Shown here: piece after piece, positions 4,150 to 63,990 of the stretch
Position numbering within the stretch: the first letter of the stretch is position 1
Layout: each line of letters opens with the position of its first letter
Source: Escherichia coli
GTDB lineage: Bacteria; Pseudomonadota; Gammaproteobacteria; Enterobacterales; Enterobacteriaceae
DNA: 64,000 nucleotides
Direction: 5' to 3' (one strand)
NCBI RefSeq assembly: GCF_030013205.1
Contig: NZ_CP122648.1
Program-made: the position numbers and the translations under genes
The notes under the pieces: model-generated
Database searches by the model: none
Seen by the model: only the letters and a program-made list of their open reading frames with translations
What the model was told of the DNA's origin: nothing

Positions 4150-4150
4150 C

Positions 4151-7223: not shown

Positions 7224-7393
7224 AATGGCTCACTCAAGCTTGCTCACGATTGATTCCAGTAACAAACCGTATTGTGTAATTATTTCTATAGCAGGTCGCT
7301 ATATAGGCTTGTATACATCGAATAATTTGAAAATCAAAGAGATAGGTAGATTTTCACTCGAAAGTAGTATTACGTGTAAGTGAGGAGTAATTA

Positions 7394-7407
7394 TTGTTCG
7401 GTATCAA
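7394..7407. promoter_or_regulatory. FNR-like box TTGTT-N4-ATCAA upstream of dmsA
   Basis: Sequence ttgttcggtatcaa, one mismatch to the TTGAT-N4-ATCAA consensus; dmsABC is known to be FNR-activated. Confidence 0.4.
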
Positions 7408-7419
7408 AGGGAGACAAAA

Positions 7420-7439
7420 AAAGCGCCCGCAGGCGCTTT
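7420..7439. repeat. 20-bp direct repeat aaagcgcccgcaggcgcttt, putative attL core of the P2-like prophage
   Basis: Identical 20-mer occurs again at 28470..28489; together they bracket all phage genes. Confidence 0.55.
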
Positions 7440-7522
7440 AACGTTTCTTGCTCCCCCTGATGATTTACTTATTTTTCAACGAATAAGCCAAAACAGGGGG
7501 AACAAATTAACACAAATTATAA

Positions 7523-13668: not shown

Positions 13669-14004
13669 AGCAGTATCAGGATTTTTTAGTATGCCGTTCT
13701 CACAAAAAAACCGCTTGCCATGCCGCAATCAGTCAGGTTACATTTCCGCTGCACCTCATAAAACGGGTGCCGGGATTTCCACCCCGCTGACAACCAAAGC
13801 GCACAACCGCGCCAGCGGTTTTTTTGTGCGTACCGTATCGCCACGTCTTTTTCGCACACGAATTATGGTGGGGCGTATGGGGCCGACTTCGGTCGGGCCG
13901 GGTTCTTTGGTTGCCGGTTGTGGAAACCCTGTACGTCTCACCACCCCGAGTTTTCCACCTCTGGATGGTGAGTTTTCAAAACTTACAACCAAAGAGGCCA
14001 CACC

Positions 14005-43338: not shown

Positions 43339-43426
43339 GGTGAGGTGTCCGAGTGGCTGAAGGAGCACGCCTGGAAAGTGTGTATACGGCAACGTATCGG
43401 GGGTTCGAATCCCCCCCTCACCGCCA
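43339..43426 (+). tRNA. serW: tRNA-Ser (anticodon GGA)
   Basis: 88-nt GGTGAGGTGTCCGAGTGG...TTCGAATCCCCCCCTCACCGCCA with long variable arm and GGA in the anticodon loop. Confidence 0.93.
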
Positions 43427-43472
43427 TATTCAAAGAAGAGCTCGTACGAAAGTAGGGGCTTTTTTTTCGCAT
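43408..43472. repeat. direct repeat copy 1 (tRNA-Ser 3' end plus terminator)
   Basis: aatccccccctcaccgccatattcaaagaagagctcgtacgaaagtaggggcttttttttcgcat. Confidence 0.7.
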
Positions 43473-43587
43473 ATTGCACACACCGGGGGGATGAGAAGCC
43501 CCGACCGGGGTTCGACAACTGGCGCAGCCAGTTGGACAGACCACGAACACAGTGAGTGGGCTGCCCGCAGGGCGAGCGAAGCGAGTC

Positions 43588-43651
43588 AATCCCCCCCTCA
43601 CCGCCATATTTAAAGAAAAACTCGTACGAAAGTACGAGTTTTTTTTCGCAT
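43588..43651. repeat. direct repeat copy 2 (duplicated tRNA-Ser 3' end plus terminator)
   Basis: aatccccccctcaccgccatatttaaagaaaaactcgtacgaaagtacgagttttttttcgcat, near-identical to copy 1. Confidence 0.7.
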
Positions 43652-46517: not shown

Positions 46518-46690
46518 TGTCAGTTATCATCTTCGGTTACGGTTATCGGCAGAACGCCCTGCCGCTGACAAGAGCTTATTTGCCTGACCAATCTACTCCA
46601 CATGATAGATAACTATCATTTATATCATTTAGTTAATTAGTCTTTATTTTTCATTATGTTGCAAATAACAACCCCGTCAAAAACAGTGAT

Positions 46691-46715
46691 ATTAACTACA
46701 CCATTAACTACACCG
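46691..46715. repeat. island-end repeat attaactacaccattaactacaccg (tandem 12-mers)
   Basis: Near-identical 25-mer at 57068..57092; both followed by CGAACAA-type motifs. Confidence 0.6.
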
Positions 46716-47303
46716 CTTCACGAACAATATCGAACAACCGCGAACAAAGATCAACACGCTTTAATCATTATCATTTTCCGGCTATCCGTCATGAAGCTGG
46801 TGGATGATCTGCGTGGTGATTTCCACCATTCAGAGCAGGGGCGGTCATCATGACCATGCCATAACAAAAACCCCATATTCGTGGTTTTTCTGTGTCGGGG
46901 CTATTCTGCTGTTGCCGTGCTGGTGGATATTCTCCGGTATGCGGCTCCCCATATCGGCATCAGGCCCACCAGCGTGAAGCGTTTTTCATTTTTCGCGGGT
47001 ATAAAAAATCGATGGGGCGGGCAGTCCTGAAGACGTCAGGGTACGGAGATTTGACCCGCCCCTCCCTGTGCATGAGCACAATAAGTAACCGAAGGCGGAA
47101 TTCCGCCCTCGGTACTTACATATGAGAAACGATATTTCTTCCACCGATACCCTTTATTTGGGTATTGCGAGTAAGCCCCAAAATCTGGGTGTTACTCTTA
47201 CTACCCAAACTACGGGTAGTTTCCGTAGTTTCATGGTCGAGTTGCAAATCTGCAACTCACCCACCAGCCAACGCAATTTTGCGTTATCGGGAATATCAGC
47301 AAG

Positions 47304-47591
47304 TTACCGCCGCAGTCGTTCCGGCTTCTTCCACTGGTAAGTATTTTTCGCGCTCTCCCTCCGTTGTTGAGAACGGCGACGGTATGCCAGCAACTCAAGG
47401 ACTCTGGTTCGTATGTTGCGCATATCCACGCCGTTAAGCTCAATACCATCACGGCGCATCACCTCAGCAACAACACGCGCGTAATTTTCAGCGGTGACTG
47501 TATCCGGCTGCGCGGCCTGTTCGTCAGCCAACTGGCTGATTCCACCAGCACAGCGGATTAATCGCAGTATTTCAGATTCGGTCATTATCAT
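47304..47591 (-). CDS. hypothetical protein downstream of terS-like gene
   Basis: 95-aa ORF, ATG overlaps the upstream stop. Confidence 0.5.
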   Translation of the reverse strand: MIMTESEILRLIRCAGGISQLADEQAAQPDTVTAENYARVVAEVMRRDGIELNGVDMRNIRTRVLELLAYRRRSQQRRESAKNTYQWKKPERLRR

Positions 47592-48073
47592 GCCTGTTTT
47601 GCGACCTCATTCACTACGTCATTTTTTACCATCCGGCTGATAATCTGATTACACAAATCGTCAATAATTGACTGCACTCTGTTTACTGCCATCGGTTTAA
47701 GCCCGGCATCACGTGCCAGAATATTGGGGAGTTTTGCCAGTTCCTCGCTTACGATTTCCCCCCATATAGCCATCTCTTTTCGCACATCATCGGCGGGTAT
47801 GAGTTGCGCCGTTTCCTGTTCGAACTTGAGGCGTTCACGTTCGGACTGATACCAGGCCTTACGGTCTTGTGGCTCCATTTCTTCCAGTGATGCCGGAACG
47901 GGAAGATCAAGAAAACAGGTCAGAATGTCAGTCACCCGATAGAGTTTCAGCTTGTCATGCCCTCCGGCTGGCTGGATGTTTTTCAGCCTTGCCGCCGCAG
48001 TCTGACGACATATTCCCGCTATCGCCGCCAGTTGATTAATGTTCAGCATCAGATTTTTCAGTTCTCGATCCAT
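47588..48073 (-). CDS. Nu1-like small terminase subunit / packaging-redirection (Rpp-like) protein
   Basis: ATG at 48073 (MDRELKNLMLNINQLAAIAGICRQTAAARL...), N-terminal wHTH plus coiled coil resembling lambda Nu1; the track start at 48160 is TTG. Confidence 0.55.
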   Translation of the reverse strand: MDRELKNLMLNINQLAAIAGICRQTAAARLKNIQPAGGHDKLKLYRVTDILTCFLDLPVPASLEEMEPQDRKAWYQSERERLKFEQETAQLIPADDVRKEMAIWGEIVSEELAKLPNILARDAGLKPMAVNRVQSIIDDLCNQIISRMVKNDVVNEVAKQA

Positions 48074-48226
48074 ACCCGCTCCAGAATGTTTTAAACATGC
48101 ATCTTGCGAACAACTTTCAGAAGAGGTCAAAAAATGCGCTATATGTTGAGCATAAAACAAGCAAAATTAACATGCCAAAAATAAAAATACTTAAAATTCA
48201 ATACAATATGAAGATGATGATGACGA

Positions 48227-48322
48227 ATGAAAATGCAAAAACTAGCCTTTTTCCGCGCCGCTCCCGCCCCGTGGCAGACCACTCCACCGGGAGGACCCGT
48301 AAAAAAGGCGGCTGTCGCCGCC
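48227..48322. repeat. conserved intergenic element A (about 72 nt shared with element B, then a GC hairpin)
   Basis: About 85 percent identical to 50761..50832; hairpin ggcggctgtcgccgcc at 48307..48322. Confidence 0.6.
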
Positions 48323-48329
48323 CTTGTTG

Positions 48330-50243
48330 TCATGCTCCACTCGATTTCAGTAATCCGCGATAATCGAGGGCCGCGACACCTGCATCTATGCGCACTTTCC
48401 AGGCGACACCATCAACAGTAAAGCCCACCTGCTCCTCAAGATATGGCGTATCCATACCATCAAGATAAGCGACTTCTATTGTGTCCATCCCCTTAGCTGC
48501 GGCTACATACCATTCCTTGCTATTGGCCTTATCAAGACGTGGCTCAACAATTACTTCTGCCATATCTTTCACCACGTTAATGATGCCGGGGTTCTGATTG
48601 ATAGTGCTCTCATCACCAACCGGAAAGACTGATGACGATGACAGAATGGCGCGACGCGCGGCAGATTCCAGCGCGGCAGGGACCAGAACAAAAGCAGGGG
48701 TAATATTCAGTGAGTCGCCGTTAGCATCCTCCTGGAGGCGCATCAGCTTACGGGCTTCATCAAGCCCCACCATGTCCATATCCTTCGCAATAAGATTTTT
48801 ATGATCGGCATGGAATAACGCTTTACCATCCGTAAATTTGCCGTTGCTGGTTAACAGAAGATAAACCAGATTACCTACTGTTCTGGCGGCCGCACGCCCC
48901 ATCGCCATGGGGATTGTAGTTAACTGGGTCAGGTCATCGTTGATAATGGCCTGACGGGTAACAGAAAAAATATTACCGTATGTGGCCAGCGCAATAGGTA
49001 CACCTTTATCGCTGGTGGTGATGTATTTATATTCCGCACCTTCCGGTACTTTATCCAGCTTTGAAAAACCATTCAGACCAACGCGCTTTGCTTCATGAAA
49101 GTTTGAAAGCGATCCGGTACGCGTCCATTTCTGGAACGTTTCGCCGCTGTCCTGCCAGCCTTTCAGCACTGATTTTTCAGCACCACCAGCCAGAATATGA
49201 GAAAAATCGCTGCTGCTGTGTGTGAAAGCTGCATTAACGACCTGCGAGCGATTTAAAAAACTGCCAACACTGATACCACGATCAGTTAGTGATGCCTGGG
49301 CCATTTCAAAAAGGCTCATCATCGCGTAAGGATTTCCCCGCTCTGGGCGTTCATACCCAAGACGAGAATAAAGCCCCTGACGAATTGCATCGCCTGTTAT
49401 GTTCCCGTTACCGGCATAAATATGAGTCGGGATATTTTTATTGGATGGCGTGGACTCGCGCCCCAGCTCGTTCAACAACTTTTCACGGGCCATCTCCGGT
49501 GTACATGATGCATCCTCCAGGCACGCCATTTTGATCCCGTCGTAACGACTGCCGAACAGGCTAAACACTTCACTTATTCCGTTGATGCGCTTCTGTTCAT
49601 TACCAGCAATATTGGCTGCTCCCTGTGGCGGGGTAATCATTCCTTTAATGGTTTCAGGCATGTGTGAAAAATCTCCTGTGCGTTTCGATTCAATTCGCGC
49701 CATTGCTGTGACAGATGGCAACAATTCATCAGCAAAACCGTGCTTAAGGCATTCTTTCCCGTCCATCCAGGTTTCATCTTCCAGCATGGCGGTAATTTCC
49801 TGTGCTGATTTGCCCGTTTTTCTGGCATAAGCAGGGACTAACACGGTTTCCACCTTATCCAGCAAATCAGCATAATCACGCATATCACCAGCATTTCCGC
49901 CAGAGATACCCCACGGCTTATGTATCATCATCATGGCGTTTTCCGGCATCACAACACGATCGCCAGCCATTGCGACAACCGAAGCCATTGAAGCCGCAAC
50001 ACCATCGATATAAACCGTAATTTCTGCCGGATGATTCCGTAACAGGTTATAGATGGCGATGCCTTCAAACACGTCACCACCTGGCGAATGGATCCGCAGG
50101 TCGATATGTGAGACATCGCCCAGGGCTTTCAGGTCTTCCGCAAACTGCTTCGCGGTAATACCGAAGCCGCCAATTTCTTCATAGATGGATATTTCTGCCG
50201 CTCCGCGAACACCCAGCGCCTTAATGGTGTACCAGTGATTCAT
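48330..50243 (-). CDS. prohead protease (ClpP/S49-like) fused to HK97-fold major capsid protein
   Basis: Single 637-aa ORF; N-terminal serine-protease-like region (HSPGGDVFEGIAIYN...), C-terminal roughly 400 aa capsid-like. Confidence 0.8.
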   Translation of the reverse strand: MNHWYTIKALGVRGAAEISIYEEIGGFGITAKQFAEDLKALGDVSHIDLRIHSPGGDVFEGIAIYNLLRNHPAEITVYIDGVAASMASVVAMAGDRVVMPENAMMMIHKPWGISGGNAGDMRDYADLLDKVETVLVPAYARKTGKSAQEITAMLEDETWMDGKECLKHGFADELLPSVTAMARIESKRTGDFSHMPETIKGMITPPQGAANIAGNEQKRINGISEVFSLFGSRYDGIKMACLEDASCTPEMAREKLLNELGRESTPSNKNIPTHIYAGNGNITGDAIRQGLYSRLGYERPERGNPYAMMSLFEMAQASLTDRGISVGSFLNRSQVVNAAFTHSSSDFSHILAGGAEKSVLKGWQDSGETFQKWTRTGSLSNFHEAKRVGLNGFSKLDKVPEGAEYKYITTSDKGVPIALATYGNIFSVTRQAIINDDLTQLTTIPMAMGRAAARTVGNLVYLLLTSNGKFTDGKALFHADHKNLIAKDMDMVGLDEARKLMRLQEDANGDSLNITPAFVLVPAALESAARRAILSSSSVFPVGDESTINQNPGIINVVKDMAEVIVEPRLDKANSKEWYVAAAKGMDTIEVAYLDGMDTPYLEEQVGFTVDGVAWKVRIDAGVAALDYRGLLKSSGA

Positions 50244-50449
50244 TGCTCCCCCCCAGATGCAAAACCATTCTTATCAAGCCACGCGTTAACCGCGTGTCTG
50301 ACAATCTGCGCCGCACCTGGTAATGGTTGGTCAGGATGATGATTTATGTGGTCGATCCTGTACTGCTTAAGGCGCATAACGGTCTGCGCATCCAGATGAA
50401 CGGAACCACCTTTTACCTCGCCTGTGTTCAGGTCGTTAATACAATTCAC
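50240..50449 (-). CDS. hypothetical small protein (non-ATG start)
   Basis: 69-aa ORF with GTG start and AGAGGA RBS; stop overlaps the capsid start. Confidence 0.4.
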   Translation of the reverse strand: MNCINDLNTGEVKGGSVHLDAQTVMRLKQYRIDHINHHPDQPLPGAAQIVRHAVNAWLDKNGFASGGEQ

Positions 50450-50760
50450 AGTAACTTCCTCTTACTGACTAAACTGCGCGCATTATTGATCGATAAAAGT
50501 GGTAGATAAACATATTTCTATCATAAAAATAGATTAATCAGATTCAGACACAAAAAAGCCGGAGAGAATCCGGCATAAATATCCCGCCATCTGAACACGT
50601 TTTGCACAGGCAACTCCATCTGGCAGGTGAAAAACAAATTTATTTATATATTTCAATTAATTGCAAACTGGTCTAATGACAGGGAGAAAAAAATATTGTA
50701 CAGGTGAAAACAGAAATAACTTTTAATTATCAATAAATTACTACACATGCTGCCGCCGCC

Positions 50761-50858
50761 ATGAAAATGCAAAAACCAGCCTTTTTCCGCGACGCTCCCG
50801 CCCCGTGGCAGGTCACTACACCGGGAGGACCCATAAAAAAGCCGGATTGCTCCGGCTT
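50761..50858. repeat. conserved intergenic element B (copy of element A core, different terminal hairpin)
   Basis: atgaaaatgcaaaaaccagcctttttccgcg...ccgggaggaccc then gccggattgctccggc hairpin with T-run on the minus strand. Confidence 0.6.
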
Positions 50859-50872
50859 CTGTTACTCGTTGC

Positions 50873-51295
50873 TTAAAACGGTATGTTATCCCCGTACGGA
50901 TCATCATTTCCCGCCTGTTGTTTTGCTCTGCTCAGTGCATCAGTAGCCTGCCCCTGTTGGCCTTTTTTGCCGCCCGGTCGCGCCGTTCTCGCACTGATTA
51001 CGCTGTCTGCGATAACCTGCCAGCCCTGCCGCGTCTCCCCGTTCTGTCCGGTCCACTGGCTCACCTGCATGTTACCCGCCACGCTCAGGAGTTCACCCTT
51101 GCGGTGCTTTGCCAGTGCTTCGGCCTGTCTGCCAAACGCCAGGACGGATAACCACATCGTCGCCGTTCCGTCATCTGCCTGGCTGCACGGAAGTGGGACC
51201 GCCATACTCGCCATCGTCATTTGTGTACCCTTGCTGGTGGTCTTTAACTGCGGGTCAGCCACCAGCCGCCCGTAAGCCGCTATCTGTGCTGTCAT
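50873..51295 (-). CDS. single-stranded DNA-binding protein (SSB-like)
   Basis: 140 aa, OB-fold-like N-terminus and acidic C-terminal tail DDPYGDNIPF like the SSB DDDIPF tail. Confidence 0.65.
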   Translation of the reverse strand: MTAQIAAYGRLVADPQLKTTSKGTQMTMASMAVPLPCSQADDGTATMWLSVLAFGRQAEALAKHRKGELLSVAGNMQVSQWTGQNGETRQGWQVIADSVISARTARPGGKKGQQGQATDALSRAKQQAGNDDPYGDNIPF

Positions 51296-51537
51296 GCTGT
51301 CTGCTCTCCGGTTTTAACGTTGATGGTTGTCACCTGTTCCGCTTCGGCAATCTCCCGTTCTGTCAGCGTGGCAAAGTTTGCAGCTGCCGTTGTCATGAAT
51401 GAGCTAATCAGTTCGGGATGTGCTTTCGCATATCCTTCCCCGGCGTTGCGGTCGATGATTTTTATCGACACCCTTAACCAGTGTTCCGTCAAATCAAGGG
51501 CGTGCGATTGTGATTTTTTTGTGTGCTTCGCTGTCAT
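51292..51537 (-). CDS. hypothetical protein
   Basis: 81-aa ORF overlapping the SSB start. Confidence 0.45.
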   Translation of the reverse strand: MTAKHTKKSQSHALDLTEHWLRVSIKIIDRNAGEGYAKAHPELISSFMTTAAANFATLTEREIAEAEQVTTINVKTGEQTA

Positions 51538-51583
51538 AGGCTTTATCTCACAGCAGTAAATTAAAATTTTTGCGTTTTAACCC

Positions 51584-51812
51584 TTCACCTGTTCACCTTT
51601 TGATATTTTATCTTTTAATTCATAATGTTAAGGGGTGAACAGTTTCACAAAAACTATTCACCAACTGTTCACCACTGTTCACCCTTGAAGCTCAATAAAC
51701 AATCAAAAAGGTGAACAGTGAATAGTTTGGTGAACAGTTCATAAATAACTGTTCACCCTATAACATACTGATACAAAAGATATTTATGACAGGGTGAACA
51801 GTGGTGAACAGT
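51584..51812. repeat. iteron array: at least 9 copies of TGTTCACC/GGTGAACA in both orientations (P4 ori/crr-like)
   Basis: Octamers counted at 51590, 51634, 51666, 51676, 51710, 51729, 51750, 51793, 51803, with TATTCACC variants; immediately downstream of the alpha-like gene. Confidence 0.7.
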
Positions 51813-51824
51813 TATTCCATAAGT

Positions 51825-53642
51825 TTAATTTTTGCTATCGTCATTAGTGACCGATACACATGATGGCATCCAGTCTTCTGATTCCTCCGTCAGTGTCACG
51901 TTTGAACGCAAACCGTGCTTCGTTTTCCGTTTCATATACTCCCTGCCATATTCCGCCATTGCCCCCGGCATATCTTTACCGAAGCGCGTCAGTGTTACAG
52001 GTTTACCAAACCCATGTGCCCTCATATAAGCCAGATAGGCATGATAGAGATACCTGCGTGGGCTGAATGGCACAATTTCAGCATTACCCACTAACAGGCC
52101 ATCACACATTACCGACGCCATGAGATAGCCGCAGAAGTCCACCAGCGAATCCCCCTCTCGCTTTATCGCCAGTGCTTCTTCAGATTTCTGCTGCTCATAT
52201 AACAGGCGTCTGGCTTCGTCCTGGTCAGCAAACCGTGTAAGCAGATGGCGAATCACTACCGCCAGCTCACCTTCTATTTTTTCCGCCAGCATTGGATCGC
52301 GTTCGTTCTCCGGTACAACTTCCGAAAAATTGAATATCACCCGACGACGTGAGATCCCCCCGCTGCGGTCACTGAATGACATGGCGTTATTGTTAACCGC
52401 CAGCACTACTGCCGGAATACGCGTTGAGTAGGGGGCTTTGTGTTTCGGGTCAATTGCCACCTTGTCACCGCCTGTAATGGCCTTAATTCCTGCCCCATCA
52501 CCAGCGTAGCGGGTCATATCCGGCATGATAATCAGCGAAAAGCCAACCACTAACGCGCGTTCCCTTGCATCTTCCAGCGCCTTCATGCTTGCCGATACTG
52601 TGTTGGCCTTACCCGCCAGCATGGTGCAAATCTCCGCCATCACGCTTTTACCACTTCCCCCTGGACCTGTTACCTCAATGAATAACTGCCAGTCGTACCG
52701 GTTCGCCAGCACCATGAATAATGCAGCCAGTACGCGATCCGCCTTGCGGTCATTCTCAGCCACCGAACGGCGTAACCACTTCCAGAAATTCGGCGCATGT
52801 GTTGCCAGCGTTTCCCCCTCTGCTGGTGGGCTGAAAGGTAATTCACTGGCAATTAACAACCAGTCGTTTTTGTTATGCTCCCGAAAATTACCTGTTCTGG
52901 TATCAAATACCCCGTTACTGAATCCAATCAGGTTACGGGCTGTATTCCCCATAACAGGCAAACTTAACTTCATGGTATCGACCGCCGATTTAATGGCGTT
53001 CTGCGAATAGCTGATCTCCGCATCAATGAAAATCTGTGCCATAGCTCGCTGTAATTCTTTATCCTGTACTGGCTCCCATACAACGCCGTTGTAATGGTGA
53101 ACAGTGTCAGAGTCAGCATGAATCGCCAGTTCACCGCCATAATGTGCCAGGAGAACTTCGCCGCGTTGACTTGCTCCCATCTGGTTAAGCGCCAGTGATG
53201 AAGCGTTATCGTCTTTTACCCGCTCTTTTTTCTTTACAGGCAGTTCAACTACCTTTTTCTTTTCCGCCTGCTCTGCCCGTTCACGTTCCAGATATTCGCG
53301 CCAGTTCTCCCGTTTCTGGCTGTGCATTCCTTCAGGGTAATAATCAGCATCCCTGACACCTGCCGCTGCCAGTTTCTGCCCGATGGTATTAACAAGCCCC
53401 GGACGCAATAACCCCGCCTGGTAGAGACGCACGCGATAGCGTCCGTCCGGTACGATTTGCAGGTTGTCCAGTTCGGCAAGTTGTTGCTCTCCAAGCCAGA
53501 CAGGTGGCACGTTATCGCCAGCCAGTCGCCCGTCCTGTTCCTGCCACTGCTTCGCATGTGCCCACGCATCACTACCCGCAAAAATGATGACTTCCGTCAT
53601 TTTGTCACGCGGCTGGTGTTTTAAATTTGGCGCTTTTTTCAT
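51825..53642 (-). CDS. P4 alpha-like replication protein (D5_N / SF3 helicase, primase-helicase family)
   Basis: Walker A GPGGSGKS; ATG at 53642 with GGAGAG RBS; the track start at 53657 is GTG. Confidence 0.8.
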   Translation of the reverse strand: MKKAPNLKHQPRDKMTEVIIFAGSDAWAHAKQWQEQDGRLAGDNVPPVWLGEQQLAELDNLQIVPDGRYRVRLYQAGLLRPGLVNTIGQKLAAAGVRDADYYPEGMHSQKRENWREYLERERAEQAEKKKVVELPVKKKERVKDDNASSLALNQMGASQRGEVLLAHYGGELAIHADSDTVHHYNGVVWEPVQDKELQRAMAQIFIDAEISYSQNAIKSAVDTMKLSLPVMGNTARNLIGFSNGVFDTRTGNFREHNKNDWLLIASELPFSPPAEGETLATHAPNFWKWLRRSVAENDRKADRVLAALFMVLANRYDWQLFIEVTGPGGSGKSVMAEICTMLAGKANTVSASMKALEDARERALVVGFSLIIMPDMTRYAGDGAGIKAITGGDKVAIDPKHKAPYSTRIPAVVLAVNNNAMSFSDRSGGISRRRVIFNFSEVVPENERDPMLAEKIEGELAVVIRHLLTRFADQDEARRLLYEQQKSEEALAIKREGDSLVDFCGYLMASVMCDGLLVGNAEIVPFSPRRYLYHAYLAYMRAHGFGKPVTLTRFGKDMPGAMAEYGREYMKRKTKHGLRSNVTLTEESEDWMPSCVSVTNDDSKN

Positions 53643-53938
53643 TTCGGCTCTCTCCACGCGGCAATCATGTTTTTCAGTTCCTGCAGTTTTTTATCCACAT
53701 CCACACGTGACACATGGTTATTTCTGGAAGTCGGGATTTCCCGCCGGAATCTGCTAATAAAGATCTCCACGTTCAGCGAACTATGAAATGAATAGCCATC
53801 ACGAATAAAATACACACGGTCAAACATCAGTTCTTTTACCGTTACTCTGTTACCGTTCTTATCCAGATAAATAGCGCCGGGGATAATTTTGGGGTGTGCA
53901 TAACCGCTGGCAGTCAAGCCAGATAAATATGTTCTCAT
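53639..53938 (-). CDS. hypothetical protein
   Basis: 99-aa ORF, overlapping start/stop with the alpha-like gene. Confidence 0.45.
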   Translation of the reverse strand: MRTYLSGLTASGYAHPKIIPGAIYLDKNGNRVTVKELMFDRVYFIRDGYSFHSSLNVEIFISRFRREIPTSRNNHVSRVDVDKKLQELKNMIAAWREPK

Positions 53939-53944
53939 GATTAT

Positions 53945-54265
53945 TTATCCCCGATTTGAATCAGTATTCGCTTTCTTTATGGCATTTAATGCATCTGTGG
54001 CATTTTCAATGGTGCACCGTAACGAAATATCAAACTGCCCAAGCATTGCCAGTAACAAACCGATATTACCCATATCAATGCGCATGGCCTTTTCGTCATA
54101 GTCCTCATTTTCTGACGCATGCCACATCAGGCTACCAATTGACGCAACAGCCATTGATATATTGTCAGTAGCCCCATCAGCAGCGGAATAAACCTTTTTA
54201 GCAATATCATGCTCACAGTTAAAATGCGGATTAATCAGGTACTGGTAATTTGACATATCAGGCAT
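53945..54265 (-). CDS. hypothetical protein
   Basis: 106-aa ORF. Confidence 0.45.
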   Translation of the reverse strand: MPDMSNYQYLINPHFNCEHDIAKKVYSAADGATDNISMAVASIGSLMWHASENEDYDEKAMRIDMGNIGLLLAMLGQFDISLRCTIENATDALNAIKKANTDSNRG

Positions 54266-54461
54266 GGCACACCCCCTGACGAATACGGGCGGCGAATACC
54301 ATCACGTAGCCAGCCGGGGATTGCTGGCGTGCTTCCTGTTCACTGGTGGCCTCAATGGTAATCACGCGCGGTTGTGCCGTGCTCAGGGCGATAAAACGCC
54401 AGATGTATTTATTCAGGTTGTACGAGTCCCGCCCTTGCGGGTGTCTGGTATAATTTCTCAT
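54258..54461 (-). CDS. hypothetical small protein (real part of a spurious 302-aa track ORF)
   Basis: Internal ATG at 54461 with GAGG RBS (MRNYTRHPQGRDSYNLNKYIW...). Confidence 0.3.
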   Translation of the reverse strand: MRNYTRHPQGRDSYNLNKYIWRFIALSTAQPRVITIEATSEQEARQQSPAGYVMVFAARIRQGVCHA

Positions 54462-54540
54462 AGCTGCCTCGATACTGTTGCTATCGTTGGTGGTTAGACG
54501 CCCTGCATGTGTGCCACCACTGCGGGGCGTTGTTGCTTGG

Positions 54541-54630
54541 TGCATCGCACCATTCGTTTTTAACCTATCAGCAAGTGAATCGCACTTCAAGCCTTTCTCT
54601 GAAATTTTTTTTGTGTATACTGAATCGCAC
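54541..54630. promoter_or_regulatory. three direct repeats TG(C/A)ATCGCAC plus a TATACT -10-like box upstream of the RHH gene
   Basis: Copies at 54541, 54576 and 54621; TATACT at 54616..54621. Confidence 0.4.
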
Positions 54631-54651
54631 CAACTTAGAGAGGATTCAGTA

Positions 54652-54831
54652 ATGGCAACAGGTTCAACAAATAATAAGTCGCAACAGTTAAATGCCAGAT
54701 TCCCGCATGATGTTGTTGCAGACTTAGAAAAAAATTTAGATGAAGGTGAAAGCAAGGCGCAATTTATAGTTACTGCCGTTAAAGGCGAGATCAAACGCCG
54801 CCAGCGCCGCAAGGCCAAAGAGCAGGAGTAA
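54652..54831 (+). CDS. ribbon-helix-helix (Arc/CopG-like) DNA-binding protein
   Basis: 59 aa; N-terminal beta-strand-like LNARFPHDVVADL; GAGAGG RBS. Confidence 0.55.
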   Translation: MATGSTNNKSQQLNARFPHDVVADLEKNLDEGESKAQFIVTAVKGEIKRRQRRKAKEQE

Positions 54832-54873
54832 CCATCACCAGCGCCGTGGTGTGAGTAACTACGGCGCATTGCT

Positions 54874-55062
54874 ATGCAGGACAACACAATGACCGATAAA
54901 GAATTGACCAAAACATTATCACCGGCACGGAAAAGACGGCGCAGAAAGATAGAGCATGAATCAGAAAGATTCGCGCCATGTGCTTTTGCTCTTGAGAAAT
55001 TCCTTAAAGAGCACAGGAAAAAGCTCTCGTTGCAAACCTTGGAACGAACCAAATCTGACTGA
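54874..55062 (+). CDS. hypothetical small basic protein
   Basis: 62-aa ORF followed by hairpin ggcgaccgcccccggtcgcc with T-run. Confidence 0.3.
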   Translation: MQDNTMTDKELTKTLSPARKRRRRKIEHESERFAPCAFALEKFLKEHRKKLSLQTLERTKSD

Positions 55063-55176
55063 TCACATTGCCCACCAGCCGCAAATGTGGCATTGTTGGT
55101 GATGCGTTCAAGTTTAGTGTGTATCCATTGGCGACCGCCCCCGGTCGCCTTTGTTTTATATGTCATATGCTCCCCT

Positions 55177-55386
55177 TTACGCTGCCTTGCCTGAATTAAT
55201 GCGATCCCGGCTTTTAACCCATTCCATAACCTCGGACAGCAGCCAACCTACAGAACGACCGCCCAGATTACGGCGTGACGGGAAATTCCCTTTTTTCTCC
55301 AGTTCATAGCGTGTAGTGCGACACACTCCAGTTAACTTACGACATTCATCCTCACGGATTACGCGATCTTCATTTATTTCACGCAT
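55177..55386 (-). CDS. alpA: AlpA-family transcriptional regulator
   Basis: 69 aa, MREINEDRVIREDECRKLTGVCRTTRYELEKKGNFP... typical AlpA/Xis HTH. Confidence 0.8.
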   Translation of the reverse strand: MREINEDRVIREDECRKLTGVCRTTRYELEKKGNFPSRRNLGGRSVGWLLSEVMEWVKSRDRINSGKAA

Positions 55387-55805
55387 ACAAAAACCTACAT
55401 AAAAAATTACGTATATAAACTTTTCTCTTAGCTGTAGATATATGAGATCGGATATTACTTAGATTCTTTTTTCACCTCTTAAATTAAAAACACAACCTTG
55501 CTAAAGGCTTTGTTCGCTAAGGTTCGTAGAAGCTCGTTAGTGTTTAAAATCGTGTCACGAGTTTTTAAGCGATGCAACAAAAAATGTCGTTACTTGGCAT
55601 TACGCTTGAATTATCTCATTAAAAACAAATAGATAAACCATCAAGTGTTGGAACAATCAAGAAACAGAGAATAAAAGTTCAGAAGAAGACATTCCAATTT
55701 TTTGATGGTTGACATATATAAAGCGAAGATATTTGCAGATATTTTCCGATATTCTACGATTTATTCACGGCTGTAATCTCTTAAAGAAAAAACAGCCGTA
55801 ATTTG

Positions 55806-57053
55806 TCAAGAATTTTGGGGGTAAATTCGCGGGGTCATAACAACGATTTTTTCATCATTGTTCTGGAGAAGCTCGAGACGGTCTACCCATAGATTAAGAG
55901 CATCACGTTTTGCATCAAGATAACGGGAGTGGTTATAGACTCGTTGCATCCCCGGCATCTGGTGGGCGGTAAGCTGCTCGACAATATGCGGATCCACGCC
56001 TAAATCGTTCAGCATGGTTGTAAATGTGTGCCGGATGTCATGCAACGACCAGGGGGCTTGATTAATGCGTCTGTGTGCCGTTCTTCCGTACTCTGCTACG
56101 GATGATTGCCCTTTCAGTTCTCCAAGCAATAAGCCCGTGTGCCTGTTCTTCTCCACCAGCTTCATGACAAACGGCAAGATCGCTTCCGGTATTGGCCTGA
56201 ATATTGCTACCTTCGTTTTGCTGTGTTCTTTCGGCACAGTCCAGAGCATTTCTTTAAAATCCCATTCCTGAACCTCGGAGCGTCTTAGCTCAGTGGTACG
56301 GCATCCAAAGACAATCAGAAGGCGAATTAAGGCGCTGTAGTACGGCGGGAAAATTTTTTCATCCAGTGCGCGGAGTAGCTCGCCAAGCTCCTTGTTTGTT
56401 AGCACTCGCTCGCTTATTTCTGCTTTTTTTCCCACATCACCTACGACCATATCATCAAGAACGTTACTGACGGCGTAGCGACGTTTACGGCAGTACTTAA
56501 GCGCCTGCTTGCATACCTGCAACAAAAAGCCGGCTGATACCGGATTACGCTTAGCAAGCTGGTCAAAACAGGCCAGCCAGTGGCGTAACTCGCATTTATC
56601 CAGCGGCATAGCACCAATCTGGCTGATTATGTGCTTATTGATCCGGCTTTTCAGTGATTCGTGGTCAGTGCGCTTTTCCTTCGCGTATGACTCAAGCCAG
56701 TAAGTGATCGCGTCCTTAACCGTTACAGGTGCTAACGCTTCCTGCACTGTGTGATTAAGCTCATGGCGTGGATTTTTCCCCTCCGCCAGCCAGGCGCGAC
56801 ACTGTGCCGCTTTTTCTCTGGCTGCTTTCAGGCTCAGATCGGGATAGTTGCCCAGTCTCAGGCGTTCCGGTGATACCTGCCTGCCAGTTCCGGCCCTGTA
56901 AGTGAAATACCAGGTTAACAGGCCATTGGTTGAATGCCTTACGCTAAGGTTGCCACCATCATTAAAAAAGGTGTTTTTTGTGGTTGGTGATCCGCTTAAT
57001 TTTCGTAAAAGAGTGTCGCTAAGTCTATGAATTGCCCTGCTCATGTTTCGCAT
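55806..57053 (-). CDS. int: tyrosine integrase (P4-type)
   Basis: 415 aa with catalytic-region motifs (HDIRHTFTT, YNHSRY); at the island end next to cspD. Confidence 0.9.
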   Translation of the reverse strand: MRNMSRAIHRLSDTLLRKLSGSPTTKNTFFNDGGNLSVRHSTNGLLTWYFTYRAGTGRQVSPERLRLGNYPDLSLKAAREKAAQCRAWLAEGKNPRHELNHTVQEALAPVTVKDAITYWLESYAKEKRTDHESLKSRINKHIISQIGAMPLDKCELRHWLACFDQLAKRNPVSAGFLLQVCKQALKYCRKRRYAVSNVLDDMVVGDVGKKAEISERVLTNKELGELLRALDEKIFPPYYSALIRLLIVFGCRTTELRRSEVQEWDFKEMLWTVPKEHSKTKVAIFRPIPEAILPFVMKLVEKNRHTGLLLGELKGQSSVAEYGRTAHRRINQAPWSLHDIRHTFTTMLNDLGVDPHIVEQLTAHQMPGMQRVYNHSRYLDAKRDALNLWVDRLELLQNNDEKIVVMTPRIYPQNS

Positions 57054-57067
57054 TTCCGGTCATCAAA

Positions 57068-57092
57068 ATTAACTACACCATTGACTACACCG
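57068..57092. repeat. island-end repeat attaactacaccattgactacaccg
   Basis: 24 of 25 identical to 46691..46715; 15 bp beyond the integrase start. Confidence 0.6.
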
Positions 57093-57448
57093 TGCATCGT
57101 ACAAGGGCAAACAGCGACGAACAAGGGCGAACAAGAAAAACGAAATTTTCCTTTATAATCATAGCAATAAATGAGATAGATACACCACGACGAACACCCG
57201 CGAACACTAACTGATAAATAACTATCATCTATCGTTGGCATCAGCGACATCTGTCACATTCCTGTCAATAGCGTTAACTGCTTCAAATTTTTGATTCATA
57301 CCTGCCCCCTGGCCCCTGTCAAATGCTTGACGGCTCGCCCTAATTCTCTAAATTGTATTTCTAGAGTTGACGAGGTTTTGAACAGCCCCCTCTCTGACCC
57401 CGGTTTATTCCATCTTACTTGTATAAGATTTGCGAAGGATGTCGAAGC

Positions 57449-60918: not shown

Positions 60919-61911
60919 ATGGTGAAATCGACGTCATGTATAACCATTGATTTCATGAATATGTCGCAGCTAACTGAACGGACCTTTACGCCATCTGAAT
61001 CTCTCAGCAGCCTGTCACTTTTTCTTAGTCTGGCACGTGGACAGTGTCGGCCGGGTAAATTCTGGCATCGCCGTAGTTTTCGCCAGAAATTTTTGCTGCG
61101 CTCGTTGATTATGCCGCGTTTAAGCGTTGAGTGGATGAACGAACTTTCCCACTGGCCTAATCTCAATGTGTTGTTAACGCGCCAGCCGCGACTGCCTGTG
61201 CGTCTGCATCGCCCTTACCTTGCGGCGAATCTTAGCCGTAAGCAATTGCTGGAGGCGTTACGTTACCATTATGCGTTACTCCGCGGATGTATGTCGGCGG
61301 AAGAATTCAGCTTATATTTGAATACCCCCGGGCTGCAACTGGCGAAGCTGGAAGGCAAAAACGGCGAGCAGTTCACACTTGAGCTGACCATGATGATCTC
61401 AATGGATAAAGAAGGTGACAGCACAATCCTGTTCCGCAACAGCGAAGGTATTCCTCTGGCAGAGATCACGTTTACCCTGTGTGAATATCAGGGGGAAAGA
61501 ACAATGTTTATTGGCGGACTGCAAGGCGCAAAATGGGAAATTCCACATCAGGAAATCCAGAATGCGACGAAAGCCTGCCACGGGCTATTTCCCAAACGCC
61601 TTGTGATGGAAGCGGCCTGTCTGTTTGCCCAACGTTTGCAGGTAGAGCAGATCATTGCCGTCAGCAATGAAACACATATTTACCGCAGCCTGCGTTATCG
61701 CGATAAAGAAGGCAAGATCCATGCTGATTACAACGCGTTCTGGGAGTCGGTAGGCGGCGTATGTGATGCTGAACGCCATTACCGCCTTCCGGCACAGATA
61801 GCACGAAAAGAGATTGCCGAAATCGCCAGTAAAAAACGGGCTGAATACCGTCGGCGCTATGAGATGCTCGACGCTATTCAGCCACAAATGGCCACGATGT
61901 TTCGCGGTTAA
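60919..61911 (+). CDS. ybjX: VirK/YbjX-family protein
   Basis: 330-aa ORF; synteny after macA; true start may be an internal ATG (MNMSQL...). Confidence 0.8.
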   Translation: MVKSTSCITIDFMNMSQLTERTFTPSESLSSLSLFLSLARGQCRPGKFWHRRSFRQKFLLRSLIMPRLSVEWMNELSHWPNLNVLLTRQPRLPVRLHRPYLAANLSRKQLLEALRYHYALLRGCMSAEEFSLYLNTPGLQLAKLEGKNGEQFTLELTMMISMDKEGDSTILFRNSEGIPLAEITFTLCEYQGERTMFIGGLQGAKWEIPHQEIQNATKACHGLFPKRLVMEAACLFAQRLQVEQIIAVSNETHIYRSLRYRDKEGKIHADYNAFWESVGGVCDAERHYRLPAQIARKEIAEIASKKRAEYRRRYEMLDAIQPQMATMFRG

Positions 61912-63566
61912 TCCGCGCGACCGCGCGCCAGCCACAGCACGCGTGAGAACATTTTTTTCAGCAGCGTCGGTACGGAATCCACACCACGACGTCCTGCCTC
62001 CATTGCCACTTCAATGGCAAGATCGGGTTTGGAAGAGCGATGGATCGCTTTCGAGATAATTTTGCGCAGATTCATCGGTACATTTTCCGGGATTTGCGCC
62101 ACGCGGTGGAACACATCGGAAAATCCCTGGCGATACATAAAATGTTCCATATCCAGCGCCGGTAACGCCGTTAAATGTTCTCGTTCGGCTTCCCGATCGT
62201 TATTCAACAGGCTGCGTACCGTAGCGGCATATTTCTTCCCTGCCTCATCGCCATCGACCAGTACATGCCATTCAATCCCCATTCGCCGGGCAAATTTAAC
62301 CAGTGGCTTTAGCCCGGACTGGGCAAACTCAATGACCTTGATCCCTTCGGCATCAAAATGATGTCCGCACTGACGCGCCAGTTCATTGATAACCCAGGTT
62401 TCCGTTTCGCCTTCCACCAGCAGCCAGCAGCGTGCAAACAGCGATGACGGACGATTAAAACGAATGTGGAAAGAGATGCGTCGGCTGTCTTCGGTACTCA
62501 AACCACTCGGCCCCAGACGCCAGGCGGCAACGCGCGAGGACTCACGTACCAGTCGGCAAACATGTTCTACCGGCGTTAACGAAAGCAGCTCGCCAGAGTT
62601 GGTGGTGGCAATGCGCTGCAATGGCAGAAGATTCAACAGATGCCAGGCAACTGAAAGCATAATGGGGTGTAAACGGGTTTCTGGATCTTCGATCAGCAAC
62701 AATGGACGGGCGTCTTTATCCAGTCGCAATGTGCCTTTTGCCTGCAACAAAGTAGCAAACAGGCCGAGCAAAATAACCCGATACGAGCGCCCTCCTGGTC
62801 GGTCAATCATCCGGTTGATGATATCCAGATAGCGCCAGCTTCGTTGCTCATTGCTGGCTCGCCGCCGCATTAAACGATATCGCGCCTGTCCGGCCCCCTG
62901 CTCAGAGAAATAATGCTCAAGCAGCTGTACCATTGCGGAAAGTCCCTGACGAATCTGTCCATCAGAGAGATTTTGCGGATGTGAGGACAACTCACGGGCG
63001 AGGAAATCGAGCTGGCGCGCGGTGACTTCCACATTGGGGACATTTGGCACCGTGCCGTTACGAATACGGCGCATAAAACGGGCATCACGCAAGCGCAGCA
63101 CCGGCATTAAACGCACCAGATGGCGTGCCTGATCGTTAATATCCTCGACATCAATCGGATGTCCGTCTTTATCGAGAAAACTGCGCAGTGTCATCACGCT
63201 GCCGTCTTCCGCACTCTCCCCTTCCAGACGATAAAAAATACGGTGATAGCCATCGGTGCATGGCGTCCAGCACGCTTCCAGCGGCCGATAGCGGCGAACC
63301 CGATGTCGGCCTGGCAGCGATTCGCGGAAGGTCAAAATAATATGCAGATGATGTTCTCGCCCGTTGATATCTCCCGGCGGGAACCAGAAATCGTCGCGCT
63401 CAAAATGGTAGAGATCTAATTCTGGCGATAGCAGCAGGGTTAAGGCGTCCAGCAAGCTGGATTTACCCCACGCGTTCTCCCCAATCAGGACGTTGTTTTG
63501 TTCCAGCATCAACGACAAACGGTTGATACCGCGAAAACCCACAATTTCAACGCGCTCAAGAATCAT
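61908..63566 (-). CDS. ybjD: OLD-family ATP-dependent endonuclease homolog
   Basis: 552-aa ORF, N-terminal ATPase (ENAWGKSSLLDAL), Toprim-like C-terminal region. Confidence 0.88.
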   Translation of the reverse strand: MILERVEIVGFRGINRLSLMLEQNNVLIGENAWGKSSLLDALTLLLSPELDLYHFERDDFWFPPGDINGREHHLHIILTFRESLPGRHRVRRYRPLEACWTPCTDGYHRIFYRLEGESAEDGSVMTLRSFLDKDGHPIDVEDINDQARHLVRLMPVLRLRDARFMRRIRNGTVPNVPNVEVTARQLDFLARELSSHPQNLSDGQIRQGLSAMVQLLEHYFSEQGAGQARYRLMRRRASNEQRSWRYLDIINRMIDRPGGRSYRVILLGLFATLLQAKGTLRLDKDARPLLLIEDPETRLHPIMLSVAWHLLNLLPLQRIATTNSGELLSLTPVEHVCRLVRESSRVAAWRLGPSGLSTEDSRRISFHIRFNRPSSLFARCWLLVEGETETWVINELARQCGHHFDAEGIKVIEFAQSGLKPLVKFARRMGIEWHVLVDGDEAGKKYAATVRSLLNNDREAEREHLTALPALDMEHFMYRQGFSDVFHRVAQIPENVPMNLRKIISKAIHRSSKPDLAIEVAMEAGRRGVDSVPTLLKKMFSRVLWLARGRAD

Positions 63567-63990
63567 ACCCCCTCCAGAAATATGTGACTTATCCTTTACG
63601 CTGGCAGTATAACGGGAAAGGCCTTGCTAATACGTGATGACATCACATTTAAGCATGGCAAATGTCTGAAAAATGAGCGAATAATCGCGTTATACTCCCT
63701 CTTGCTGATAAGCCTGCAAAAACAACAAAATCAAATAATTAGCATGATAAATTATTTTTTATTACGCCTAAAGGATTAAATCTTTCGCTTGCACTACACT
63801 GTCAATCAGACAAATGACTATATGGGGCAACCCGCTGTTGCCCTAAATCAAATTTACTGGATTTATTTATCTGGCGAATGATTTGCCTTCGTTTTTAAAA
63901 TAGCCGCGCATTATTTCCGTCGTCACTTTTTTACGACGACCCTATAAAACGACCATATTTTTCACAGGGTCAATTTTTAATTGAGGTGGA

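Follow-up and report, generated by a model that had tools for sequence, protein, structure and literature searches.

YbjD of Escherichia coli is an OLD-family protein with conserved motifs and vertical inheritance whose selected function may depend on its Toprim nuclease domain

The ybjD gene, a still-uncharacterized 'y-gene' of Escherichia coli, encodes the sole OLD-family protein that practically all members of E. coli, Salmonella, Klebsiella, and Enterobacter have in common, and the question that it raises is whether this protein serves in immunity against phages or has a native role of another kind in the cell. We analyzed the gene in a window of 64,000 nucleotides of E. coli DNA (contig NZ_CP122648.1 of assembly GCF_030013205.1), in which an earlier note had placed it at 61908–63566. 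The position was confirmed exactly by the bounds of an ORF that starts with ATG in the ORF list of the window, and the Pfam and PADLOC matches, the identity with the K-12 protein and the genome counts all agree with it, far beyond chance. The features of the locus are collected in Table 1.

Table 1. Features of the ybjD locus in the 64,000-nucleotide window.
Feature	Position	Strand	Basis
ybjD CDS (552 aa and stop), OLD-family ATPase-Toprim protein	61908..63566	minus	ORF list, Pfam, K-12 identity, AlphaFold model
Shine-Dalgarno sequence of ybjD, GGAGG	63571..63575	minus	Sequence; kept across genera
TATACT, -10-like hexamer about 40 nt 5' of the ybjD ATG	63606..63611	minus	Upstream alignment of 10 genera
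TTAA palindrome shared by the stop codons of convergent ybjD (minus) and ybjX (plus), 4-nt overlap	61908..61911		Sequence
ABC-type ATPase domain (DUF2813), residues 1-377, with a predicted helical insert (about 160-280) between two lobes	62436..63566	minus	Pfam; profile-to-PDB alignments; model
Walker A/P-loop GENAWGKS, residues 29-36 (K35)	63459..63482	minus	Translation; family alignment
Walker B, D-loop and H-loop region LLLIEDPETRLHP, residues 289-301	62664..62702	minus	Translation; family alignment
Toprim nuclease domain (378-470) and C-terminal helical domain (471-552)	61911..62435	minus	Pfam; conservation
Toprim catalytic glutamate motif EGETE (E385, E387, E389)	62400..62414	minus	Invariant in family alignment
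Toprim DxD motif DGD (D438-D440)	62247..62255	minus	Invariant in family alignment
E474, invariant acidic residue of the Toprim/C-terminal region	62145..62147	minus	Family alignment
K513, invariant lysine of the C-terminal helical domain	62028..62030	minus	Family alignment

The -10-like hexamer is contained in a CGyTATACTGC block, which is common to the Enterobacteriaceae genera in an alignment of the upstream regions of 10 genera, and may represent a promoter element of ybjD, as judged from the sequence. It was not called by a generic promoter scan because there is no good -35 element. A candidate regulatory palindrome, GTGATGtCATCAC, is also present upstream and is kept in Escherichia only in the same alignment. 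The gene is flanked by the divergent aqpZ and the convergent ybjX, which encodes a DUF535 protein, and the convergent ybjD–ybjX pair is listed as an excludon in ExcludonFinder (PMC12288877), with antisense transcriptional interference between the two genes being possible in Escherichia. DNA-repair papers mention ybjD solely for the use of the aqpZ–ybjD intergenic region as an insertion site.

The protein of the window is identical to K-12 YbjD (b0876), for which the name OldB has been proposed, at 550 of 552 residues (99.6%), and the only differences, S50L and M489V, are both located away from the conserved motifs. The gene also has the same length, start codon and aqpZ-ybjD-ybjX-macAB neighborhood as in K-12, in which the clpS–cspD gap is without the satellite island that it holds in this strain. 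YbjD was used as the seed in defining the OLD classes and was placed in Class 1 (Schiltz et al, 2019; PMC6755086), and a literature search under DUF2813 and b0876 gave nothing beyond that report. Furthermore, phage tests on YbjD, of the kind that the earlier note had proposed, have already been published (Atahualpa et al, 2026; PMC13261556). As an OLD-family protein, ybjD is, hence, already recognized, classified and tested in the literature. The description of its function as poorly defined, also given in the note, holds as well.

The assignment to the same ATPase and Toprim family as P2 Old and GajA, also made in that note, was supported consistently by sequence, profile and fold. PADLOC analysis of YbjD gave matches to the GajA models with E values down to 9e-80 (best model, PDLC00094) and to the Old model at 3e-24, and a search of the PDB with the YbjD family profile gave GajA at 2.6e-19 and Ts OLD (6P74) at 3.1e-19, with alignments covering residues 1-400/446. 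In a Foldseek search with the AlphaFold model (pLDDT of 84.7), GajA, Ts OLD and retron Eco8 OLD came first, followed by PtuA, Rad50 and SMC heads. Pfam assigned residues 1-375 to DUF2813 (E 4.5e-160) and residues 376-440 to OLD-like_TOPRIM (E 3.8e-16), with further matches to AAA_15, AAA_21 and SMC_N in the ATPase part. Long helices (residues 177-277) lie between the lobes of the ATPase in this model, and residues 162-176 and 223-244 have a pLDDT below 50.

The motifs were evaluated in an alignment of 59 relatives sharing 28-91% identity. G29, E30, E385, G386, E387, E389, D438, G439, D440, E474 and K513 were invariant, and G34, K35, E293, E296, H300 and P301 were conserved at 90% or more. The stretch of residues 289-301, including the conserved LLLIEDPE (289-296), aligns with the 'IEEPE..LH' motif of GajA and Ts OLD. 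EGETE aligns with 'LLIEGPSE' of Bacillus cereus GajA and 'LLVEG' of Ts OLD, and DGD with 'DnD' of GajA and 'DeD' of Ts OLD. The Toprim domain of Class 2 OLD proteins has a two-metal site (PMC6755086), in comparison with which E474 is a candidate second-metal ligand, and K513 is a candidate for the equivalent of the catalytic lysine. Thus, two features of the OLD family, namely, the ATPase motifs and a Toprim domain at the C-terminus having the Glu, the DxD, further acidic residues and a Lys, were both found in YbjD, and with its Walker A, Walker B and Toprim acidic residues intact, YbjD is, as far as its sequence indicates, a genuine OLD-family enzyme. No ATPase activity, nuclease activity or substrate was found to be reported for YbjD in the literature.

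The genomic context agrees with the definition of Class 1, in that ybjD stands alone, with no helicase, retron or split Toprim partner alongside. The tandem GajB that defines Class 2 (Gabija) is absent, and no UvrD-like helicase was detected next to the gene, whether in this strain, at 80 loci of Enterobacterales or at the loci of 7 distant DUF2813 relatives; nor was any other conserved partner gene, such as a retron, found in those 80 and 7 loci. The strong GajA HMM match reflects shared family membership only. With respect to Class 3, there is no reverse transcriptase ORF adjoining ybjD, and an Rfam search gave no retron ncRNA nearby. Class 4 (PARIS) has separate AriA and AriB, whereas the ATPase and Toprim domains of YbjD are in a single polypeptide of 552 aa, for which the PADLOC match to AriA is limited to the P-loop region. 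Class 1 proteins are smaller than those of Class 2, whose Toprim region has an extra helical insert; the length is 552 aa for YbjD, 575-598 aa for the solved GajA chains and 528 aa for Ts OLD. The OLD clade to which YbjD belongs (DUF2813) is a distinct one, carried on chromosomes, non-mobile and passed on vertically, in contrast to the OLD proteins of P2, Gabija, retrons and PARIS.

The distribution of the gene bears out the suggestion that it is core rather than accessory. Of 5426 complete E. coli genomes, 5424 (99.96%) carried ybjD at a DNA identity of 95-100%, under the annotation 'ybjD: ATP-dependent endonuclease'. Relatives of YbjD were found in at least 511 species, and the best 80 of these were all Enterobacterales, in which the order lysO-ybjD-macAB-cspD is kept and which gave a near-full-length, stop-free match in 79 cases of 80. 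The pairwise distances of YbjD track those of LysO (r = 0.93) and MacB (r = 0.88) with a slope of about 1, comparably to the MacB–LysO control (0.87). In comparison with E. albertii, omega was 0.016 for the whole ybjD and 0.005 for its Toprim segment, with values of 0.024 for macB and 0.065 for ybjX, indicating that ybjD and its housekeeping neighbors evolve at similar rates (omega of about 0.02). The Toprim segment (residues 378-552) was the most conserved part among 79 Enterobacterales orthologues and had the lowest dN/dS. Because dS is saturated, omega for pairs more distant than E. albertii is only approximate, and selection was therefore judged chiefly from the comparison with E. albertii and from relative dN.

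The evolutionary signature of defense genes, which consists of patchy presence, horizontal transfer and association with defense islands or mobile elements, was not found for ybjD. All of the 7 distant DUF2813 relatives were located alone among housekeeping genes and outside defense islands. Among the plasmid matches listed (full length, at least 42% identity), most were chromids of Mb size or mislabelled chromosomes, and a few small E. coli 'plasmid' records (42-88 kb) carried a ybjD–ybjX segment. A phage origin, raised by the match of phrog_4747 to YbjD at 6.7e-116, was ruled out, as a tblastn search of 50,697 phage records gave no YbjD-like gene except one 2-kb fragment. The PHROG matches to YbjD and YbjX are probably host DNA swept into prophage predictions.

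The surroundings of the gene raise the possibility that ybjD forms a functional unit with the convergent ybjX or with the satellite island, a cf-PICI-like element. The stop codons overlapping in TTAA and the excludon listing could be taken in favor of the former, and proximity in favor of the latter, since 4.7 kb separate the island's right-hand att repeat (57212-57232) from the stop codon of ybjD, in accordance with the distance of about 5 kb given previously. However, ybjX is missing in 20 of the 80 species that keep ybjD and is lacking beside the distant YbjD relatives, evolves 2.6 times faster, and correlates poorly with YbjD in distance (r = 0.48), by which a two-gene unit was ruled out. 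A link with the island was also ruled out, since strain 7/2 carries a 100% identical ybjD and, like K-12, no island, and the island integrase (at least 95% identity) is carried by roughly 2% of E. coli genomes versus 99.96% for ybjD. The closeness of ybjD and the island is, hence, a coincidence of two independent elements, and the probability that ybjD works as a unit with either neighbor is negligible. The gene is here an ordinary core gene without connection to the neighboring satellite island.

The published phenotypes were obtained with the K-12 allele, whose product is 99.6% identical to the window protein. The gene is natively expressed, and its deletion in the Keio collection caused no change in the response to 68 BASEL phages (PMC13261556). 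When ybjD was overexpressed from pBAD at a non-toxic dose of arabinose, the plaquing of Bas18 and Bas20 was decreased, and the plaques of the T7-like phages Bas64-68 became smaller (PMC13261556). The phage phenotype was retained on deletion of the Toprim domain and lost on deletion of the ATPase domain, and point mutations of three Toprim acidic residues caused no phenotypic change (PMC13261556). The K35A mutant also retained the defense phenotype and was more toxic, and no recBC-linked killing was observed (PMC13261556). In addition, the Keio deletion is viable, and no published phenotype was found for it in the literature, so that any housekeeping role should be non-essential or redundant.

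The unchanged phenotype of the Toprim mutants and of the Toprim deletion offers no direct support for nuclease activity of YbjD in vivo. The Toprim domain is, nevertheless, the part most strongly selected and yet dispensable for the phage effect, and therefore the selected role would be nuclease-dependent and one that has not yet been observed. This disparity, the recognition of which is the new contribution of the present analysis, hints at an undiscovered native role, possibly one outside defense. We consider it somewhat probable that YbjD is an intact OLD enzyme, the selected function of which is nuclease-dependent and either cellular or latent, and that its effect on phages is a side activity. 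In this scheme, an ABC-type ATPase head with a helical insert of the dimerization type would be followed by a Toprim nuclease with two metals and by a helical tail. The head may bind ATP and thereby keep the protein restrained, and the loss of ATP binding may unleash a toxic activity, whereas the Toprim site may cut nucleic acid, presumably by nicking or breaking DNA or by cleaving structured RNA. The native role could be in genome or RNA maintenance or in defense against other triggers, and the phage phenotype on overexpression could arise incidentally from the ATPase domain. As a narrower and more tentative form of this proposal, YbjD may be a domesticated OLD protein, that is, a vertically inherited, nuclease-dependent factor for genome or RNA maintenance corresponding to archaeal Cran1, with the phage effect as a by-product of the ATPase. 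Such a reading would span Enterobacterales and, via the DUF2813 clade, many other Gammaproteobacteria.

It is also possible, albeit with some doubt, that YbjD (OldB) is a stand-alone Class 1 defense protein that is dormant natively, is activated by a cue from the phage, such as falling nucleotide levels or one of its proteins, and stops infection via its ATPase and/or nuclease as a universal innate immunity. The specific effect on phages at a non-toxic dose fits a defense role, every characterized bacterial OLD class is defensive (PMC10568477), including the Class 1 defense nickase Vc OLD (PMC12392090), the PADLOC scores for GajA and Old are strong, and the greater toxicity of K35A recalls the ATP-inhibited GajA. 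The strong conservation of ybjD is compatible with a conserved immune function as well and does not exclude it. On the other hand, the deletion was without effect on the BASEL phages, and the phenotype requires overexpression and is independent of the most constrained domain. Also against it, the gene shows no population-genetic hallmarks of defense, being near-universal, fixed in synteny across an order, evolving at a housekeeping rate, and missing from the phage records (one 2-kb fragment apart) and, among the matches listed, from true plasmids, and all of the distant relatives are located outside defense islands. An orphaned Gabija GajA, having lost GajB or using a helicase encoded elsewhere, could account for the best PADLOC match and for the top PDB matches in both sequence and fold, and Class 2 has been reported to be nested in Class 1 diversity (PMC12796447). 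This is, however, very improbable and was rejected, because no helicase accompanies the gene in E. coli or in the sampled loci; furthermore, Ts OLD of Class 1 scores equally, and the identity to the solved GajA structures is only 12-15%. A role like that of P2 Old, in which YbjD would guard RecBCD and kill on its inhibition by cutting a tRNA anticodon stem, could be suggested by the shared family, the stand-alone organization, the match to the Old model, and the cleavage of tRNA-Thr(UGU) by activated P2 Old (PMC12445682). This role is extremely unlikely, given the identity of 18% between the two proteins (PMC6755086) and the virtual absence of YbjD-like proteins from phage genomes.

The distinction matters beyond this locus. 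If immunity is the true role of YbjD, innate defense would have in it a layer of unusual age and fixity. If the true role is in housekeeping, domesticated OLD members would exist in bacteria as they do in archaea, and 'defense' labels assigned by homology, for example, through GajA or Old HMM matches, would be misleading.

Among the OLD proteins known, Ts OLD of Thermus scotoductus (Class 1) resembles YbjD in standing alone and in combining an ABC ATPase with Toprim, and the inserted dimerization region of its ATPase may be shared as well. The family profile aligns with it over residues 2-446, and the Foldseek E value was 2e-17. It differs in an identity of about 16%, in having EGYGD after the catalytic Glu where YbjD has EGETE, and in its documented exo- and endonuclease and ATPase activities, none of which is reported for YbjD. 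Bacillus cereus GajA (Class 2, Gabija; 8SM3, 8X5I and others) is the best PDB match of YbjD in both fold and sequence, with the same layout of Walker A, Walker B and Toprim Glu/DxD, and ATP could act as a restraint in both, in that GajA is inhibited by ATP and K35A of YbjD is more toxic. GajA, however, requires the adjacent helicase GajB and assembles with it at a ratio of 4:4, whereas none of the lineages sampled has a helicase beside ybjD, and Gabija is patchy and mobile whereas YbjD is core.

P2 Old is, like YbjD, a single-gene ATPase-Toprim protein that is toxic when deregulated, but it is encoded by a phage, responds to the inhibition of RecBCD and cleaves tRNAs in the anticodon stem (PMC12445682), in contrast to the chromosomal YbjD, for which recBC-linked killing is not seen. 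Vc OLD of Vibrio cholerae (PMC12392090) is also bacterial and stands alone. It defends at its native level through ATPase and nuclease residues that are both required, whereas YbjD has a phenotype solely on overexpression and independently of Toprim and Walker A. A parallel to the domesticated form may be Cran1 of Saccharolobus (OLD clade U11), which is vertically inherited, follows the species tree as YbjD does, and has no evident role in defense, its overexpression being toxic through the ATPase domain (PMC12796447). Cran1 differs in that it is essential and cell cycle–regulated and belongs to another OLD clade and another domain of life, whereas ybjD is dispensable in the laboratory; it nonetheless provides a precedent for a vertically inherited OLD protein outside defense (PMC12796447).

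The coding potential at 61908-63566, where the earlier note had placed an OLD-family homolog, was confirmed by an open reading frame with exactly these coordinates, by Pfam and PADLOC matches and by identity with E. coli K-12 YbjD (b0876; 550/552 residues, the changes being S50L and M489V). In addition to DUF2813 (E = 4.5e-160) and OLD-like_TOPRIM (E = 3.8e-16), Pfam gave weaker P-loop family matches at the N-terminus, and the matching PADLOC models were GajA, the Class 2 (Gabija) OLD protein (best E = 9e-80), and Old (3e-24). When 1.84 billion representative proteins were searched, 1969 clusters reached E<=1e-3 and 334 reached E<=1e-30; 59 relatives with 28-91% identity were taken from this search and aligned. 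G29, E30, E385-G-E387, E389, D438-G-D440, E474, and K513 were invariant, and G34 and K35 (Walker A) and E293, E296, and H300 (Walker B, D-/H-loop) were at least 90% conserved. In the PDB, the family profile matched GajA structures (2.6e-19) and the Thermus scotoductus OLD of Class 1 (Ts OLD, 6P74; 3.1e-19) about equally, followed by PtuA, retron OLDs, Rad50, SMC, RecN, and RecF. The best-matching PDB folds for the AlphaFold2 model (mean pLDDT 84.7, pTM 0.83), in which confidence was low only at residues 162-176 and 223-244, were those of GajA, Ts OLD, and the retron-Eco8 OLD. Taken together, the motif conservation, profile matches, and model folds establish YbjD as a complete OLD-family ATPase-Toprim protein with its catalytic motif set intact, in the family of Old and GajA as had been proposed.

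Features of the ybjD region, the satellite island, and the rest of the window
Feature	Position	Strand	Detail
ybjD ORF	61908-63566	-	ATG start, 552 aa
Shine-Dalgarno	5 nt upstream of ybjD ATG	-	GGAGG
TATACT hexamer	~40 nt upstream of ybjD ATG	-	in CGyTATACTGC block common to Enterobacteriaceae genera
Perfect 13-bp palindrome	63634-63646	-	GTGATGtCATCAC; ~25 bp upstream of TATACT
DUF2813	YbjD residues 1-375		Pfam
OLD-like_TOPRIM	YbjD residues 376-440		Pfam
ybjX	60919-61911	+	DUF535/VirK family; convergent with ybjD
Palindrome with both stop codons (ybjD, ybjX)	61908-61911		TTAA
Terminator-like consensus hairpin	61835-61852	-	inside opposite gene's coding region
Terminator-like consensus hairpin	62211-62228	+	inside opposite gene's coding region
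Island direct repeats	46603-46623, 57212-57232		21 bp, imperfect (19/21 match); TGATAGATAACTATCATTTAT and TGATAAATAACTATCATCTAT
Integrase	55806-57053		island
AlpA	55177-55386		island
D5-type primase-helicase	51825-53657		island
SSB	50873-51295		island
ClpP-protease/HK97-capsid fusion	48330-50243		island
DUF1441 protein	47588-48160		island
Rfam-matched RNA regions	13751-13948; 7314-7448; 43339-43606

OLD classes are defined by gene context (PMC6755086, PMC10568477). The gene is flanked by the divergent aqpZ and by ybjX; no UvrD-like helicase, reverse transcriptase, or retron RNA was found beside it, and the ATPase and Toprim domains are fused in one protein. By this definition YbjD is a Class 1 OLD; checks for the hallmarks of Class 2 (Gabija), Class 3 (retron), and Class 4 (PARIS) were all negative. 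An orphaned GajA, suggested by the strong GajA HMM match, was rejected on the basis of seven distant DUF2813 relatives (35-45% identity; Vibrio, Motilimonas, and others from metagenomic lineages), all of which stand alone, their neighbours being housekeeping or metabolic genes (cysS/nrdAB, argS/hslUV, PTS genes, and ppsA/yajQ among them). Giant metagenomic DUF2813/OLD-Toprim proteins of 1000-1867 aa were also observed (P0150, P0162, P0164, P0165, P0174, P0198; L090/L091: 392-4360), and one of their genes adjoins those of a 1020-aa protein without domain matches and of PolA.

The pair ybjD-ybjX has been listed as a convergent excludon (PMC12288877). As an obligate partner, ybjX was ruled out by its absence from 20 of the 80 best-matching species (e.g., Klebsiella, Raoultella, Superficieibacter, and Brenneria), by its divergence (44-66% identity outside Escherichia, with evolution ~2.6 times faster than that of ybjD), and by the poor correlation of its distances with those of YbjD (r = 0.48). 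The conserved TATACT block, a putative promoter element, fits with ybjD being transcribed as a unit by itself; a generic promoter scan did not call it. The palindrome GTGATGtCATCAC is present in E. coli, has one mismatch in E. albertii, is absent from other genera, and may be a site for a lineage-specific regulator.

That ybjD is core rather than accessory, as the earlier note had thought probable, was borne out by its presence at 95-100% DNA identity in 5424 of 5426 complete E. coli genomes and by its constant position. Relatives were found in at least 511 species (one genome per species); the best 80 were without exception Enterobacterales, each with ybjD between lysO (with or without aqpZ) and ybjX/macAB/cspD, and 79 gave a near-full-length, stop-free match. 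Pairwise protein distances for YbjD tracked the LysO distances (r = 0.93) and the MacB distances (r = 0.88) with a slope of ~1 (MacB versus LysO, r = 0.87), a sign that ybjD has descended vertically and at the same pace as its housekeeping neighbours. The Nei-Gojobori dN/dS against E. albertii (dS 0.8, unsaturated) was 0.016 for ybjD, 0.024 for macB, and 0.065 for ybjX, and within ybjD it was 0.020 for the ATPase, 0.005 for the Toprim domain, and 0.008 for the C-terminal helices; the ranking was unchanged in more distant comparisons, although dS was saturated there. Only the first half of macA of E. albertii NBRC 107761 (3897-4514) aligned, with an aberrant dN (0.37), and this gene may be disrupted or mis-assembled. 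CACSKA010000002.1, labelled 'Chryseobacterium sp. 18061', carries a full Enterobacter-type lysO-aqpZ-ybjD-ybjX-macAB-cspD locus (YbjD 86% identical to that of E. coli) and is probably mislabelled or contaminated.

Compared with the island-free strain 7/2, the window has a 10.6-kb insertion at 46624-57211. The insertion lies at the 3' end of yljB, a small gene, with clpS on one side and cspD on the other, and its gene content, from integrase to DUF1441 protein, identifies it as a capsid-forming PICI-like satellite. Its right end lies 4.7 kb from ybjD, in line with the ~5 kb noted earlier. This proximity is coincidental: the ybjD of strain 7/2, which lacks the island, is 100% identical, and the island integrase was found at >=95% identity in only ~105 of 5426 complete E. 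coli genomes (~2%). Elsewhere in the window, Rfam matched isrK and C4 antisense RNA (prophage-like region; P1/P7-type immunity RNA), the sRNA STnc130, and a tRNA-Ser(GGA) with an RtT element behind it; strain 7/2 has a different number of repeats in the RtT region.

Except for a 2-kb fragment, no YbjD-like protein was found in 50,697 phage records. Close, full-length plasmid matches were mostly chromids or mislabelled chromosomes, the remainder being a few small E. coli records (42-88 kb) with a ybjD-ybjX segment. The distribution and evolution of ybjD are thus the opposite of the usual defence-gene signature. In PHROGs, phrog_4747 matched YbjD (6.7e-116) and phrog_35383 matched YbjX (1.2e-151); no phage genome in the same collection encodes either protein, and both families probably include genes of the host that were picked up when prophages were predicted.

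The OLD classes were defined with YbjD as query and with E. coli listed in Class 1 (Schiltz et al, 2019, PMC6755086), and the effect of YbjD on phages has been reported (Atahualpa et al, 2026, MicroPubl Biol, PMC13261556), so that ybjD as an OLD-family gene is already known. In the latter study, which proposed the name oldB, ybjD was found to be expressed. The phage challenge suggested in the earlier note had a divided outcome there: the Keio deletion left the plating of 68 BASEL phages unchanged, whereas pBAD expression at 0.001% arabinose gave fewer Bas18/Bas20 plaques and smaller Bas64-68 plaques. This phenotype was kept when the Toprim domain carried point mutations or was deleted, the domain thus being dispensable for it, and was lost on ATPase deletion; K35A kept it with higher toxicity, so that ATP binding is unneeded for the phenotype and appears to restrain toxicity (PMC13261556).

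The Toprim domain is under very strong purifying selection, which conflicts with this reported dispensability. The conflict suggests that the native function of YbjD, described earlier as poorly defined, may be other than phage defence, and it is this point that could be of use to specialists. A P2-Old-like mechanism, in which YbjD would guard RecBCD and cut tRNA, is disfavoured because YbjD, unlike P2 Old, did not kill a temperature-sensitive recBC strain (PMC13261556). A latent immune role against triggers outside those tried so far is somewhat less likely than a cellular one. A conserved cellular role in DNA or RNA maintenance is somewhat more likely than dedicated immunity. In YbjD, the ABC-ATPase head and the two-metal motif set of the Toprim domain are intact, the fold is that of an OLD protein, the gene stands alone, and inheritance is vertical, with constraint strongest on the Toprim domain. 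We infer that YbjD would act as an ATP-gated nuclease, that its selected function, one yet to be observed, would need the Toprim site, and that defence on over-expression would be a by-product of the ATPase domain. A precedent for such a cellular role is the archaeal OLD protein Cran1, which is vertically inherited and has a non-defence function (PMC12796447).
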